From the UHGV virus genome UHGV-0342645: DNA of 59,919 nucleotides; one strand, given 5' to 3'. The DNA comes from a virus. The notes under the pieces are model-generated. The model made no database searches, had not been told where the DNA came from, and saw only the letters and a program-made list of their open reading frames with translations. The stretch's first letter is position 1; each line of letters begins with the position of its first letter. This document shows positions 12,756-18,805 of the stretch, piece after piece. The translations under genes were made by a program, and so were the position numbers.

Positions 12756-13063
12756 GTTTATGAAAGTTTATAGAGTTTATATTGTGAAGTATAAACAATC
12801 ACATAATACCAATAGGTACTATATACATTAATAATAAATCCTTATTTTATATATATTTATAGTTATTATTAATATTAGTTTAATTTGGTTTATTTTAGTT
12901 AGTTGACTGAAAGTTTATAAGTTTATAGGGGTATACTCCCAACTTTTTTCAGATAATTAATAGTATAGTAGTGATAGTGGTTTTTGCACGTTTTCACTAC
13001 TACTACTAATTATTTGTTTGAAAAGGGGGTAATAAGGGGAAACCGTAAACTTATAAACTTTGC
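12756..13063. repeat. GTTTAT(A) iteron-like repeats
   Basis: GTTTAT at 12756, 12766 and 12775. AAAGTTTATAAGTTTATAGG at 12910..12929. Its inverted copy AAACTTATAAACTTTG at ~13048..13063. All lie in very AT-rich DNA. Confidence 0.6.
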
Positions 13064-14474: not shown

Positions 14475-16817
14475 ATGGAACTGTTTCCCGCTGAAATTAA
14501 AGCTTTCCCACAATGGGCGGTCGCTGATGCGGATAAAAAGCCGCTTGTATGGGACAACGATATCGGACGTTTGATGGCGGCGGACGTTACCGATCCGGAT
14601 ATGCTAATGACGTTTGAAGCTGCCAAAGGTTGCGCTGCTCATTTCAATAAACCTTATATTGGCTTCGTGCTTACTGCGCAAGACCCGTTCACCTGCATCG
14701 ACCTGGATGTAAAGAACGCAACCAATGAACCTGATCCCAAGAAGCACACGACGCCGGAACAGTTGCGCCGCTTCGAACAGATTATGACCGCGTTCGATAC
14801 TTACACCGAAGTAAGTCGCTCAGGATTGGGCGTCCACCTGTGGTTAAGAGGTAACATCGGTAAAGGTCGTCGGCGTGATGGTGTCGAGGTTTATAGTCAG
14901 GAGCGTTTTATTATCTGCACGGGTAATCCTGTCTATAACAAACCAGTTGCAGAACGTGATCATTATCTTACTATGCTTGTGAATGAAATTGATCTTCAGC
15001 GCAAGACATATGAAATTGAACTGGTAGAAAAAGATCCGGTAGAAGACGACGCAACTATTCACCAGCGTGCGCTTGAAGCAGACAACGGCGATAAGTATGC
15101 ACGCCTCTTCAATGGTGAATGGGTTGAAATGGGATTCCCTTCCCAGTCTGAAGCAGATCTTGCCCTTATTTCCATGTATGCATTCTACACAGAAAGTAAT
15201 GAGCAATGTCGTCGTCTCTTCCGTTACAGTGCACTGGGCAAACGTGAGAAGGCTAATAAGAACAATGTTCATATTGACCGTTGTTTACGCATGTGTCGTG
15301 GTCGCATGGAACGTGAGCGCATTGCTCAGGAAAACGTAGCGGCGCTGGCGCGGGATTACGCTGCCCGTATGCAAGCCGCACACAGTGCAATGCAGCAGGT
15401 AACAGAAATGCCTGTAACCGTCGAAACAACACAGGGGCAGACAGTAGTTGCAGAAAGCACATCCGTTGATGCAACAGCTATTGAATGGCCGCCGGGGCTT
15501 GCTGGTGAGCTTGCTAAATATATATACAAAGCATCCGTCAGACCAGTGAAAGAAATCTCTATTGTTACCTCGCTCGGATTTATGGCTGGGGTATGCGGGA
15601 AAGTATGGCAGATCCCGCAATCCGGTCTTAATGGATATTTTGTCTTAATTGCTCGTTCTGGTGTTGGTAAAGAGACGTTGAACAGTGGGCTGTCTAATAT
15701 AGTTAGCCAGATTCAGGACCAGTTTCCGCAGATTCATAGCTTTGTATCTTTTGATAGATGCGCTTCTGGATCTGCACTGCGTAAATCTTTTGCAGACAAA
15801 CAATCTTTTATCAACCTGAATGGTGAGTTCGGTAAGATTATCAAAGCAATGGCAACGGCTCCAGCAGGCTCGCCGATGCAAAGTTTCAAGAATGACCTTA
15901 CCGATGTTTATCAAAAGTCCGGTCAGATGTCTATCGTTGGTGGTATGTCTTATTCTGATAAGGCTAATAATACTGAAGCTCAACAAGGTGTGGCATATAG
16001 CATCATGGGCGAAACGACACCGGATACGTTCTTTGAAGCATTAACCCGTGAAATGATGGAGGATGGATTCTTATCCCGTTTCCATGTTGTACGCTATGAA
16101 GGTGATCGACCGCCTTTAAACAAAAATCAGCAGACTACAATGGATCAGCATTTGAAGGACATGGTGTGCCATCTTGTTAACCACACTTTAGTAACAATGG
16201 CAAAGCATCAGAGTATTGAAGTACAGTTTAGCCCGGATGCGGAAGCATTATGCGATCAGTTTAACGATGAATGTGATCGCAATATTAACGCAACCAAAGA
16301 CGAAGCAATCCGTCAGCCGTGGAACCGTGCTCACCTGAAGGTCTTGCGACTTTCTGCCTTGTTAGCCGTGGGTGAGAACTGGATCAATCCGGTGGTACAA
16401 ACCTATCATGTGCAATGGGCTTTGGACTTCGTGCGTCATGGGCAGGATATTATTATGAAGGAATGGCATAGCGGAGGCATTGGGACTAATGATGAAGCTC
16501 GTATCCGTACTATGTGTCAGGTCTGTGTGAATTATCTAACTAAAGACTGGGTGAAAGTTAAACGTGTAGATTTGCGCAAAGAAGGTATTATCACGCGAGG
16601 GGATATTACTACGCGTCTTGCAAGTAAGTCCGCGTTTAAAAACTATCATCACGGATTATCCGCTGCAATCGAGTCTACAATCAAGGAGATGGTTGCTATG
16701 GGTGCACTTGTTCCGGTAACACGGGAGGAGACTATTAAACTGGGATTTACTGGGGTAGCTTGGCGCATTACGCAAGATGTTGAAGGAATTATGGCAAACT
16801 TAGGTGAAGAGGAATAA
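14475..16817 (+). CDS. bifunctional DNA primase-polymerase / helicase
   Basis: 780 aa. N-terminal AEP prim-pol signature (FTCIDLDVK, GVHLWLRG), PriCT-like SQSEADLALISMYAFYT, and a central P-loop ARSGVGKETL. Confidence 0.8.
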   Translation: MELFPAEIKAFPQWAVADADKKPLVWDNDIGRLMAADVTDPDMLMTFEAAKGCAAHFNKPYIGFVLTAQDPFTCIDLDVKNATNEPDPKKHTTPEQLRRFEQIMTAFDTYTEVSRSGLGVHLWLRGNIGKGRRRDGVEVYSQERFIICTGNPVYNKPVAERDHYLTMLVNEIDLQRKTYEIELVEKDPVEDDATIHQRALEADNGDKYARLFNGEWVEMGFPSQSEADLALISMYAFYTESNEQCRRLFRYSALGKREKANKNNVHIDRCLRMCRGRMERERIAQENVAALARDYAARMQAAHSAMQQVTEMPVTVETTQGQTVVAESTSVDATAIEWPPGLAGELAKYIYKASVRPVKEISIVTSLGFMAGVCGKVWQIPQSGLNGYFVLIARSGVGKETLNSGLSNIVSQIQDQFPQIHSFVSFDRCASGSALRKSFADKQSFINLNGEFGKIIKAMATAPAGSPMQSFKNDLTDVYQKSGQMSIVGGMSYSDKANNTEAQQGVAYSIMGETTPDTFFEALTREMMEDGFLSRFHVVRYEGDRPPLNKNQQTTMDQHLKDMVCHLVNHTLVTMAKHQSIEVQFSPDAEALCDQFNDECDRNINATKDEAIRQPWNRAHLKVLRLSALLAVGENWINPVVQTYHVQWALDFVRHGQDIIMKEWHSGGIGTNDEARIRTMCQVCVNYLTKDWVKVKRVDLRKEGIITRGDITTRLASKSAFKNYHHGLSAAIESTIKEMVAMGALVPVTREETIKLGFTGVAWRITQDVEGIMANLGEEE

Positions 16818-16818
16818 A

Positions 16819-16840
16819 TAAAGGGCCTTCCGGCCCTTTA
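16819..16840. terminator. bidirectional intrinsic terminator
   Basis: AAGGGCC-ttcc-GGCCCTT flanked by A-tract and T-tract. Lies between convergent genes 14475..16817 (+) and 16838..17068 (-). Confidence 0.7.
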
Positions 16841-17068
16841 TTGGTAGTTAAGATAGTAATCATGGATGTCGTACCTTGCCATAATTTCGGATGCTTCCGC
16901 CGCACTTTCCGCTTCTTCATAAGCTTGCTCAGCGTCGTCATAAGTACCGTAATACATCCAACCTTCACCCATTGGACGGATATATGCTTCAAATTTGCCA
17001 GTACGCGGGTGACGTACAACTTTATAATCTGCGCCCATTGTGCTATATACTTTATTCAGCATGACCAT
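16838..17068 (-). CDS. small AP2-like DNA-binding domain protein
   Basis: GGAGGA SD. HPRTGKFEAYIRPMGEGWMYYGTYDDAEQAYEEAESAA matches the AP2 pattern (GKW.A.I...lG.f.t.eeAa.AY). Minus-strand gene inside the plus arm. Confidence 0.55.
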   Translation of the reverse strand: MVMLNKVYSTMGADYKVVRHPRTGKFEAYIRPMGEGWMYYGTYDDAEQAYEEAESAAEASEIMARYDIHDYYLNYQ

Positions 17069-17618: not shown

Positions 17619-17920
17619 GCATTGTAAATACTATCTGCGAAGCAATCTATGCAGAGCTTATCCGTGAAAACGTAAATAATGAGGACAATAACCAAATCCA
17701 AAAGATTTTGGTTGATCATAAAACTTATGCAGAGATTCGTCACGACAATGCTTTTCCTCATTGGTGTCATATTTATTATCCGCGTCGTGAGGATGAATCT
17801 ATTGTACTTACAATCATGGGCTATGCTATTGTTCCAACTTATGAAGTACAAGGTTTTGAAATACTTCTAAGAGGTGGTACTTTAGCACCAAAAGCGGCAA
17901 AGGGAACCGCGCAAAATTGA
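17615..17920 (+). CDS. hypothetical protein
   Basis: 101 aa with an ATGA overlap with the upstream gene. Confidence 0.6.
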   Translation: MSIVNTICEAIYAELIRENVNNEDNNQIQKILVDHKTYAEIRHDNAFPHWCHIYYPRREDESIVLTIMGYAIVPTYEVQGFEILLRGGTLAPKAAKGTAQN

Positions 17921-17923
17921 AGC

Positions 17924-17952
17924 TTGCCATTCAAGACTGCATCCTTTAAGAT
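17924..17952 (+). promoter_or_regulatory. sigma70-like promoter of a non-coding unit
   Basis: TTGCCA (17924..17929), 17 nt spacer, TAAGAT (17947..17952). Confidence 0.5.
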
Positions 17953-17958
17953 AACCAC

Positions 17959-18263
17959 AGTTAACGAGGTTTAACAATTTAACAACATTAACTTAGTGAA
18001 CGATGCTTAACTCAAGCCCTTGAAAGTGGTAGCTGTACCTCCTTACAGCAACTACTTTCGCTGGGCTTCCTGGAGCGGACAGGGTAAACCCGCAACTTAC
18101 TGAACGATGTGAACGATGTTTAACGCGACGGCGCCAGATGTACCAAACCGTCACCAGCCTTTGGCGAGGCTGTACAAGTAGGCCAGGATAGACGAAGACG
18201 GCAGTCAAAGTAAGCTATCCGACAATCAAGAGAGCCCAGGAATCCTTATGCCTGGGCTTTTTT
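17959..18263 (+). ncRNA. candidate ~300-nt non-coding RNA (promoter-to-terminator unit without ORF)
   Basis: No SD-preceded ORF on either strand. Internal hairpins and repeats, bounded by promoter 17924..17952 and terminator 18233..18263. Confidence 0.45.
18233..18263 (+). terminator. intrinsic terminator
   Basis: AGCCCAGG, 10-nt loop, CCTGGGCT, followed by TTTTTT. Confidence 0.8.
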
Positions 18264-18337
18264 GTTCCTTGAGATCAACAGAACTTCAATATAAAATTCT
18301 TTATGAAGTGTTTTACATTAAAGTTATGGAGACAAAC

Positions 18338-18805
18338 ATGGCAGTAAATATTCGCGCTAAAGGTCAACGCGGTGAGCGGGAAGTATGCGATTTCTTTAAT
18401 GCAATTTATGCCGAAATCTACGCAGAGCTGGGGATGCAGTTACCGGAAAAACCTATTGCTCAGCGTAACCAGAATCAAAGTGCGGTCGGTGGTTGCGACA
18501 TTAGCAATACGTGTCACCATGCGGTTGAAGTAAAAAACCATGCTACGCCACAAGTAAACACATGGTGGAAGCAGACTGTTCAATCTGCTAAAGAACTTGG
18601 CAGATATCCAGTTCTCATGTATAAAATAGAACGGAAAGGATGGAAGGTTGTTCTACCGCTCAATCCAGTTGTCTTTAGCAATGGTGAGTGGCAGTGGTAC
18701 GAAGTTAAAGATTCCATCCGCGCGGAGATTAGTCTTGATGACTATCGCATTATTTTTAAAGCTCACGCGAAACAATGGTTAATTGATCGCGGTTCAATTC
18801 AATAA
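18338..18805 (+). CDS. PD-(D/E)XK nuclease, Holliday-junction-resolvase-like
   Basis: ATG 18338 with GGAGA SD. RAKGQRGEREVCDFF ... GGCDIS ... AVEVKN resembles the Hjc-type KG..ER / D / E.K motifs. Confidence 0.55.
   Translation: MAVNIRAKGQRGEREVCDFFNAIYAEIYAELGMQLPEKPIAQRNQNQSAVGGCDISNTCHHAVEVKNHATPQVNTWWKQTVQSAKELGRYPVLMYKIERKGWKVVLPLNPVVFSNGEWQWYEVKDSIRAEISLDDYRIIFKAHAKQWLIDRGSIQ

Follow-up and report, generated by a model that had tools for sequence, protein, structure and literature searches.

A conserved intergenic element of Seuratvirus phages that may encode a structured non-coding RNA

Introduction

What does a stretch of several hundred nucleotides without a gene do in the replication region of a lytic E. 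coli phage? The question is posed by a gap free of open reading frames (ORFs) at 17921-18337 in the virus genome UHGV-0342645, a 59,919-nt stretch of DNA (hereafter the window, whose coordinates are used throughout) that is a complete or near-complete Seuratvirus genome (Queuovirinae), with Seurat, CAjan, slur01 and the BASEL phages Bas21-25 among its relatives. A first-pass annotation, made from the window's sequence alone, had given this gap as 327 bp (it measures 417 nt) and had proposed that it holds a structured regulatory RNA with its own promoter and terminator or, alternatively, a protein-binding site such as a second origin or a packaging or recombination site. In the comparison with relatives reported here, the element has a conserved secondary structure, conserved promoter and terminator, and no coding capacity; covariation, strand-specific retention of G-U pairs, and promoter and terminator function kept in diverged relatives all support the first of these proposals. 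We consider a functional structured RNA highly probable. The fuller reading, that the element is an independently transcribed gene for a ~305-nt structured non-coding RNA (ncRNA; ~17959-18263, + strand) that likely acts in trans, is one that we hold with about even confidence. To our knowledge, lytic coliphages are regarded as almost purely protein-coding, with few structured phage RNAs of known role.

Results and discussion

Conserved secondary structure

The element occurs in every one of the 35 matching phage records, 34 of them close relatives (95.5-99.8% identity, five of the 34 aligning over the first 257 nt of the gap only) and one the Salmonella phage STP-SP5 (79%), as well as in 3 IMG/VR contigs and 8 metagenomic contigs. 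Hafnia phage yong3, the sole distant member, was recovered by a protein search with the downstream nuclease (RusA-like), after which the contigs were fetched; its nuclease is 69% identical in protein sequence, and a 367-nt gap lies at the syntenic place. Two covariance models were built, R1 from hairpin P1 plus the pseudoknot and R2 from repeat array 2 plus hairpins P3 and P4 (features listed below). Model R2 matched yong3 with 64.8 bits (E = 7e-16), whereas blastn gave no link between this phage and Seuratvirus.

For the structural analysis we aligned 14 distinct sequences; RNAalifold returned 88 pairs, and the second pseudoknot stem was added before pairs were counted. With the pseudoknot included, 98.3% of aligned cells were paired, and 13 pairs carried double changes, compared with 2.6±1.4 in column shuffles (0 of 500 shuffles reached 13) and with only 1-3 in a control in which the 3' partners were slid. 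Folding with covariation across relatives, which the first-pass annotation had put forward as a check of its RNA, therefore supports the structure. Every proposed helix keeps its pairing through double substitutions in at least one lineage, the compensatory pattern of a structured RNA family, with few independent lineages contributing. The same alignment gave no support to a hairpin predicted at the 5' end or to a long-range helix (columns 51-55 with 235-239). The features of the folded body are as follows.

18015-18067, + strand: hairpin P1, imperfect, ~21 bp, with the apical loop CCUCCU (18038-18043)
18068-18093, + strand: H-type pseudoknot, with stem S1 at 18068-18072/18080-18084, stem S2 at 18075-18078/18090-18093 and loop L3 UAAAC at 18085-18089
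18127-18152, + strand: hairpin P3, stem GACGG/CCGUC, with the 16-nt loop CGCCAGAUGUACCAAA (18132-18147)
18155-18172, + strand: hairpin P4, CAGCCUU/GAGGCUG, with the 4-nt apical loop UGGC
18186-18220, + strand: P5, outer stem GGAUAG/CUAUCC and inner stem GAC/GUC, with the internal loop GAA (18194-18196) opposite AGUA (18209-18212)

Hairpin P1 contains the CCUCCU-loop hairpin already noticed at first pass (GCUGUA-CCUCCU-UACAGC, 18032-18049) and has 6 pairs double-changed, 3 with G-U changes and 99.3% of cells paired; one pair was compensated independently in two lineages. While the stem covaries, the loop and its closing A-U pair are invariant within Seuratvirus, and so is ACCUCCUUA (18037-18045), which contains the loop and which we take to be the 3' end of E. 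coli 16S rRNA (its last nine nucleotides). With model R1 the scores were 113.6 bits for the window and 90.7 bits for STP-SP5.

Both stems of the pseudoknot show compensation (4 of 9 pairs, through STP-SP5 and a diverged second copy): S1 has a U-G/U-A polymorphism divided 7:7 among the 14 sequences, and a C-G pair of S2 is U-A in STP-SP5. The second copy (L021, 1213-1238) has one S1 and three S2 pairs compensated, and its loops GA, A and UAAAC are kept. It lies in a metagenomic contig (L021; ENA contig ERZ1026901 NODE-154) in which part of the element, ~100 nt, is tandemly duplicated (1146-1238); this insertion contains, besides the diverged pseudoknot, a GC-rich hairpin CCCGCAU/AUGCGGG, and it may point to a more divergent lineage of the RNA, as yet unsampled.

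Loop and stem of hairpin P3 are identical in nearly all Seuratviruses, including STP-SP5 at its 79% overall identity, with one loop change in contig L045; in yong3 the stem reads GAGGG/CCCUC (a compensatory C-G to G-C exchange), again with one loop change. The stem CAGCCT/AGGCTG of the first-pass annotation is that of hairpin P4 (CAGCC/GGCUG within 18155-18172), in which two pairs are compensatory in yong3 and one is G-U in STP-SP5, with 100% of cells paired. P3 and P4 together have 3 of 12 pairs compensated. The segment UUUGGCG of P4 (18160-18166, two closing pairs plus the loop) has its complement, CGCCAGA, in the P3 loop, and 6 bp of this complementarity are kept in yong3. A loop-loop contact between P3 and P4 is thus a candidate; neither side varies, hence there is no covariation between them.

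P5 has 5 pairs compensated in the type found in phages VogelGryff and Dru_SM1 (AAUAAGG/CCUUAUU), with the internal-loop segments GAAG and AAGUA fixed, and the corresponding region of yong3 keeps GAAG...AAGUAAG. By its consensus, the internal loop AGUA/GAA is presumably a loop-E/sarcin-ricin-like motif.

Promoters and terminator

The structured region is bounded by the following signals.

17924-17952, + strand: promoter P1, -35 TTGCCA (17924-17929), 17-nt spacer, -10 TAAGAT (17947-17952)
18227-18263, + strand: intrinsic terminator, 8-bp GC-rich stem 18233-18240/18251-18258, 10-nt loop, U6
18269-18297, + strand: promoter P2, TTGAGA-17-TAAAAT (10/12 matches), which would serve the downstream genes; it lies outside the RNA and marks the end of the unit

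The TTGCCA-17-TAAGAT promoter was located exactly where the first reading had placed it. A single match of this kind is not significant alone (6 promoter-like matches in 3 kb, compared with 6.4 in shuffles), and promoter P1 is credible because it is conserved in relatives: the equivalents are TTGACA-17-TAATAT in STP-SP5, TTGACA in ECP2304 and TTGCAA-17-TAAGAT in yong3, so that the hexamers and the 17-nt spacer are kept in three lineages, nearer to consensus in STP-SP5. From its position, transcription would start near 17959.

At the other end, the strong terminator that had been described consists of the stem AGCCCAGG (18233-18240)/CCTGGGCT (18251-18258) and T6 ending at 18263, preceded by an A/G-rich 5' flank able to pair with the U tract; the terminator scanner skipped this hairpin because its loop measures 10 nt. 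All lineages have a GC-rich hairpin and a U run at the 3' end of the element, with different sequences in the VogelGryff-type phages and in yong3. A sigma-70 promoter conserved in relatives (as judged from its sequence) and a Rho-independent terminator at a conserved 3' end are what an independent bacterial-type small RNA (sRNA) gene has, and a discrete RNA is the predicted product of the element. No terminator separates promoter P1 from the upstream ORF (stop at 17920); read-through transcripts from upstream would therefore also end at the terminator of the element.

Promoter P2 likewise has equivalents: TTGCGA-16-TAACAT in STP-SP5, an exact copy in VogelGryff despite differing surroundings, and TTGCAA followed by TATAAT in yong3. 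The gene that follows it varies among relatives (PDDEXK nuclease, HNH endonuclease, or an extra 100-aa ORF). Promoter P1, the terminator, promoter P2 and a variable next gene together point to a self-contained unit rather than a leader.

A cis-acting leader that controls the downstream operon, made as a short terminated RNA unless antitermination or refolding with a ligand or protein intervened, would nonetheless share much of this layout, namely a promoter, a structured segment of ~300 nt and a terminator ahead of same-strand genes. We regard it as unlikely. In all lineages promoter P2 separates the terminator from the gene beyond it, the following gene differs, and the sole antiterminator pairing sought (18061-18068 with 18231-18238, the 3' strand of hairpin P1 with the 5' arm of the terminator) is lost in STP-SP5. 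The small H-type pseudoknot, in a phage that makes preQ0, invites the idea of a riboswitch: like the preQ1-I riboswitch (RF00522) it is a compact H-type pseudoknot (~26-34 nt) with an A-rich third loop in a phage making 7-deazaguanine, but its L2 is 1 nt, it is not upstream of que genes and it is absent from yong3. No preQ1 model (RF00522, RF01054, RF02680) or other riboswitch model reached E = 10, the next genes encode a PDDEXK nuclease and a dUTPase, and the 7-deazaguanine genes appear to lie ~10 kb away, as judged by ORF size and position only; the preQ1 riboswitch was accordingly rejected.

As a leader, the element can also be compared with lambda 6S RNA (PR'-tR') and HK022 put RNA, which, like it, combine a constitutive promoter with a short non-coding transcript and a terminator ahead of a block of genes. 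Here, however, a second conserved promoter follows the terminator, the downstream genes are not late genes (which, again by ORF size and position, lie on the other strand), and the RNA has far more structure than is known for lambda 6S. Pfam gave no match for either of the two ORFs directly upstream, so that no Q-like protein is evident. Lambda-type late control, with a terminated leader as the sole route to the genes beyond it and a Q-like gene upstream, is therefore not what we find.

Coding potential

No Shine-Dalgarno (SD) sequence precedes the ORFs of the gap (21-71 codons, both strands), in agreement with the first-pass annotation, and none of these ORFs is conserved. Indels of +1, -2, -1 and -3 nt in STP-SP5 shift every frame, including that of the minus-strand ORF, and yong3 has no ORF corresponding to those of the window gap. 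A 21-codon + strand ORF (18116-18181) is in another frame in STP-SP5 across a stretch of 100% nucleotide identity; it is therefore the nucleotides, not the peptide, that are conserved. Neither STP-SP5 nor yong3 shows the conserved frame of a protein-coding gene.

Several deposited genomes annotate a 53-aa minus-strand coding sequence (CDS) here (bas21_0062 in MZ501071, bas25_0058 in MZ501110). It corresponds to 17993-18208 (- strand), spans hairpins P1-P4, and is not conserved in STP-SP5 or yong3; judged by sequence comparison, it is probably a spurious annotation. That the element encodes one or more small proteins, such as the 53-aa minus-strand product or 21-27-aa plus-strand peptides, would agree with these CDS calls and with the presence of ORFs of this size. 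We consider it extremely improbable, given that the ORFs lack SD sequences, that frames shift in STP-SP5 while the P3/P4 nucleotides stay identical, that yong3 has no counterpart, and that substitutions follow base pairing and not codons. The present analysis would correct these probably spurious CDS calls in deposited genomes.

The repeat arm

The 5' part of the predicted RNA and the segment between pseudoknot and P3 contain short direct repeats.

17960-18011, + strand: 5' repeat array 1, six T[TG]AAC units (17961, 17971, 17979, 17988, 17997, 18007), 8-10 nt apart, A/U-rich
18100-18124, + strand: repeat array 2, CUGAACGAUG-UGAACGAUG-UUUAAC, an internal 25-nt repeat of 17987-18011

The five TTAAC pentamers listed at first pass were found at 17961, 17971, 17979, 17988 and 18007, the repeat TGAACGATG with its third tandem copy at 17997, 18101 and 18110, and the 15-nt repeat at 17997-18011 and 18110-18124. 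All 3 genome copies of TGAACGATG lie in the gap, compared with 0.45 expected, and 3 copies were reached in 2 of 100 shuffles. The gap has 9 T[TG]AAC units in 170 nt, a density well above what chance would give, whereas elsewhere in the genome no 170-nt segment has more than 4; segments with 5-9 units account for 170 of about 59,750 start positions, consistent with this single cluster. Model R2 also matches the window itself at 17987-18047, a second site besides array 2.

Array 1 has no conserved pairing, and its predicted 5' hairpin is lost in STP-SP5. Its spacing is kept while the spacer bases change: STP-SP5 has 5 units at 8-10 nt, and yong3 has 8 [TG][TGA]AAC units, seven of them 7-9 nt apart and the last 16 nt further. 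Across the three lineages there are thus 5-8 (U/G)(U/G/A)AAC units with a spacing of 7-10 nt (apart from the one 16-nt gap in yong3), always 3' of the -10 element and inside the transcribed part. The copy number of array 2 varies, with one additional 9-nt unit in Dru_SM1 and the ~100-nt insertion in metagenomic contig L021.

Sequestering sRNAs of the CsrB/CrcZ kind are likewise marked by a short motif in many copies whose number and spacing are conserved. CsrB/RsmZ carry GGA motifs and CrcZ carries A-rich motifs, and these RNAs sequester proteins. The element resembles them in having its own promoter, a Rho-independent terminator, a length of a few hundred nucleotides and many short-motif copies; unlike them, it presents (U/G)(U/G/A)AAC every 7-10 nt along a linear arm instead of in hairpin loops, and it has no Rfam similarity to them. 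The idea of CsrA-type GGA motifs was dropped because in two of the motif copies G occurs as an alternative to the key A.

Such phased repeats might also act at the DNA level only, as an operator array or iteron origin in which the hairpins would be DNA structures, for example single-strand initiation sites. The direct repeats are unique in the genome, nucleotide conservation is high, and hairpins are possible on either strand; the - strand folds with z = -2.55 and the + strand with -96.9 kcal/mol and z = -3.43. We nevertheless rate this reading as quite improbable. Among one-sided changes in well-supported helices, 8 pairs keep G-U and 2 cells are broken; on the + strand they thus favour G-U over A-C, which fits a + strand RNA better than duplex DNA or the opposite strand. 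Furthermore, the pseudoknot is supported in both stems, promoter and terminator function is kept even where the sequences have been replaced, and the repeats are always inside the transcribed part.

Distribution and divergence of the element

In most close relatives homology starts only at 17826 (STP-SP5 aligns from 17752 at 76%), so a constant element follows mosaic upstream ORFs. Comparison of the window with STP-SP5 gives 49% amino-acid identity for the upstream ORF and 76-79% nucleotide identity (depending on the span aligned) for the element, compared with 73% nucleotide identity for the dUTPase gene, 84% for the nuclease gene and 37% identity for the C-terminal region of the primase.

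Five records (VogelGryff, Dru_SM1 and three others) diverge strongly after 18177, and in the two of them whose annotations were read an HNH endonuclease gene separates the element from the nuclease gene. In this HNH homing endonuclease sub-lineage (L005 2885-3397, VogelGryff; L024 2894-3406, Dru_SM1; L044 4511-4993; L045 4523-5008), the element's 3' third, with P5 and the terminator, and the nuclease gene (61% aa) are strongly diverged and RNA pairing is kept. The divergence beginning at 18177 next to the HNH gene looks like a co-conversion or immunity tract of a homing endonuclease.

In yong3 the loops are near-identical to those of the window (CGCCAGAAGUACCAAA; CUUGGCG for UUUGGCG), P3 and P4 have three compensated pairs and 100% pairing, and the 3' end has a different terminator hairpin and U run followed by a second promoter. 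Hairpin P1 and the pseudoknot are absent and are replaced by a hairpin GCCUAG/CUAGGC whose loop CCAGAUUCUUACCAAAG resembles that of P3. Because yong3 is without both, comparison of the sequences assigns promoter, AAC-repeat arm, P3/P4, P5 and terminator to the family core, and hairpin P1 and the pseudoknot to modules of Seuratvirus. By its sequence relationships, the element is a new RNA family so far restricted to Seuratvirus and Hafnia phage yong3, with metagenomes scanned by a strict 20-mer.

Searches with nhmmer and with models R1 and R2, which covered loci from nine other phage genera, gave no homolog in Nonagvirus 9g, SE1Kor, Providencia phage PSTCR4, Vibrio phage 83AMN, Enterobacter phage EC151, Klebsiella phage K4PH164, Siara, Iggy or R7M; in the Queuovirinae relatives K4PH164, EC151, L046, L047 and L049 there is no gap at the syntenic position. 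A scan of 596 Gb of genomes for an 18-base P3-loop pattern, GCGCCAGANGTACCAAACC, gave 42 matches and no homologs, at most 2-3 flanking bases matching, at two loci. These matches (L052-L089) fall in ~20 Mesorhizobium genomes and ~20 unrelated metagenome-assembled genomes, with the P4 hairpin absent; they are presumably a conserved coding stretch plus chance. An IMG/VR scan for the pseudoknot motif gave 11 extra matches, none with a complementary S2, and these are attributed to chance.

Several relatives have ORF-free units of their own at this place. The nonagviruses (9g, L012 3840-3985; SE1Kor, L027 3830-3985) have a ~110-nt unit upstream of the RusA-like gene, with TTGCAA/TTGTAA, a hairpin GCGAGAG...CUCUCGC with the loop UACCCCUUUU, and a strong terminator (folding z = -2.99); neither covariance model nor nhmmer links it to the Seuratvirus element. 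PSTCR4 (L014 3361-3830) and 83AMN (L015 3513-3990) have ORF-free syntenic gaps of ~470-490 nt with strong terminators. That of PSTCR4 has the 12-mer AACTTAGTGAAC in common with the window and 6 T[TGA]AAC units in 120 nt; that of 83AMN has a hairpin with the loop CCUCCCUGA and a GACGG/CCGUC hairpin after GAACGA. These two gaps may be analogs, homology not being demonstrable from their sequences.

Searches for known families and targets

A search of Rfam 15, also suggested at first pass, gave 0 matches for the whole window at gathering thresholds; relaxed to E<=10, it returned only noise for the window element and, for yong3, only sub-threshold matches over the terminator region. ARAGORN found 0 tRNA or tmRNA genes in the window. 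Similarity to E. coli genomes and plasmids did not exceed chance, and the best local score against the rrnH operon was 23, below the shuffle mean of 24. A group I intron, HEARO and a retron were rejected, there being no model match, no split host gene and no reverse transcriptase. The literature searched contains no report of the element or of a discrete transcript from it.

Base-pairing targets in trans were sought in the phage genome, where exact complementary 11-13-mers occur at chance level. The extended anti-SD complementarity TAAGGAGGTA (<=1 mismatch) has 5 sites in the phage genome, compared with 2.6 expected, of which two with start codons are ordinary strong ribosome-binding sites, and no phage mRNA has complementarity to the CCUCCU hairpin beyond an ordinary SD. 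GGAGG ribosome-binding sites, described at first pass as very frequent in this genome, are moderately common (GGAGG-N3-9-ATG, 18 compared with ~9 in shuffles): they do occur, and their frequency had been overstated.

Proposed mode of action

In the mechanism that we propose, host sigma-70 RNA polymerase would start at promoter P1, with read-through from the upstream small ORFs as a possible contributor, and would stop at the intrinsic terminator, leaving the following genes to promoter P2. The 5' arm of the RNA would be single-stranded and A/U-rich, with (U/G)(U/G/A)AAC repeated five to eight times at even intervals, and the compact 3' body would comprise, in Seuratvirus, hairpin P1 with its CCUCCU loop, the H-type pseudoknot, P3 and P4 with complementary loops, and P5 with its loop-E-like motif. 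We conjecture that it works in trans, the repeat arm being a multivalent platform on which an oligomeric RNA-binding protein, from the host or the phage, is bound or sequestered, with the folded body adding stability and further contacts. The anti-SD-like loop of Seuratvirus may be an added module able to touch GGAGG sites, a pairing that the first-pass annotation had suggested. A trans-acting, protein-binding RNA is favoured because the repeat arm is always in the transcript with its spacing kept, and because the conserved terminator would release a discrete product.

Several points weigh against this proposal. The phylogeny is shallow, with compensatory events from about four lineages (the E. 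coli clade, which has two 3' variants, STP-SP5, yong3 and a paralogous copy), and the search of the phage genome yielded no specific mRNA target. Repeats phased at 8-10 nt could also serve a DNA-binding array, and the position next to replication genes would fit an origin. Finally, the anti-SD hairpin and the pseudoknot, being absent from yong3, cannot provide the core function; anti-SD pairing in particular cannot be that of the family, because the CCUCCU hairpin is missing in yong3.

Within Seuratvirus, a bolder but doubtful possibility is that the RNA mimics the anti-SD tail of the ribosome by presenting ACCUCCUUA on a stable, covarying hairpin. Early and abundant, it might compete with the 30S subunit for strong GGAGG sites, or it might lure away a defence nuclease or a factor of the host that has the 16S 3' end as its target, with the repeat arm and the P3/P4 body bringing in a protein partner. 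S. aureus RNAIII and the Rsa RNAs likewise have a pyrimidine-rich hairpin loop complementary to GGAGG, with a conserved loop on a covarying stem; here, by contrast, the loop equals what we take to be the 16S 3' end and not a UCCC motif, and the module is missing in one family member. If the mimicry were true, this would be a phage RNA that reprograms translation initiation.

More generally, a trans-acting RNA would add a new sponge, decoy or regulator to the RNAs of phages. Every sequenced Seuratvirus has the element, among them five phages of the widely used BASEL set (Bas21-25) and CAjan, and it is thus directly amenable to genetics in E. coli K-12.

Genome setting and the possibility of a transcribed origin

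The genes at ~13.2-38 kb are on the + strand and serve replication and nucleotide metabolism, with - strand genes flanking on both sides. The 5' neighbour of the gap is a 101-aa ORF (stop at 17920) without a Pfam match, as is the ORF before it, and 1.1 kb upstream of the gap lies the gene for a 780-aa prim-pol/helicase with NrS-1 HBD and DUF3987 domains. The 3' neighbour (18338-18805), followed by the dUTPase gene, is labelled 'RusA-like Holliday junction resolvase' in RefSeq and matches PDDEXK_15 (phage PDDEXK endonuclease; E = 1.5e-13), not RusA. The packaging site that the first-pass annotation had entertained is unlikely, given the position of the unit within the replication module.

This setting bears on the main rival to a trans-acting RNA, a transcribed replication origin, in which the transcript from promoter P1 would open or prime the origin, as RNA II of ColE1 is a transcript that primes its origin, and the T[TG]AAC repeats would bind an initiator, e.g. 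the prim-pol/helicase. We give it a real but distinctly lower likelihood than the RNA gene. The primase-helicase gene lies 1.1 kb upstream of the unit, whose direct repeats have near-helical spacing, whose 5' part is A/T-rich and whose nucleotide conservation is very high; relatives encode RNase H (PF00075) nearby. The layout, a non-coding region without a conserved ORF between two promoters (17924-17952 and 18269-18297), is that of the origins of lactococcal Ceduovirus (c2), which are non-coding and flanked by promoters PE1 and PE2, the length and structure of the PE1 transcript (PE1-T) being reportedly essential (PMC7150918). Both are stretches in lytic siphoviruses between two early promoters, with a short transcript (a predicted one here) that has no ribosome-binding site or ORF. 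The two are not related in sequence, and the c2 origin lies between the divergent early and late blocks, whereas the unit at 17.9 kb is ~5 kb inside the early/middle block, the strand switch being at about 12.5-13.25 kb. The phage studied here has its own primase-helicase and a conserved intrinsic terminator ending the RNA, and its origin activity is a candidate one.

That strong terminator speaks against an origin, since it would release the RNA, and a primer must stay on its template. The cumulative GC-skew minimum is at ~12 kb, at the strand switch, and not at 17.9 kb, although skew is confounded here by transcription direction. K4PH164, EC151, L046, L047 and L049 have no gap at this position, and the repeat motif is unchanged between the window and STP-SP5 though the C-terminal regions of their primases are 37% identical. 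The repeat cores of 5-9 nt are unlike typical 17-22-bp iterons, and there is no plasmid homolog. Should the unit prove to be an origin, it would be the first mapped transcript-dependent origin for Queuovirinae.

Two further sites in the genome are of note. The stop codon of the primase gene is directly followed by a perfect 11-bp hairpin (16817-16842) flanked on either side by runs of A and T; from its sequence it looks like a bidirectional terminator common to the convergent 76-aa minus-strand ORF, which has a weak AP2-domain match. The divergent intergenic region at 12761-13061 has a perfect 16-nt inverted repeat, AAAGTTTATAAGTTTA (12910-12925/13046-13061), and a 12-nt direct repeat at 12761 and 12908, with the GC-skew minimum nearby; it is a candidate operator or origin region.

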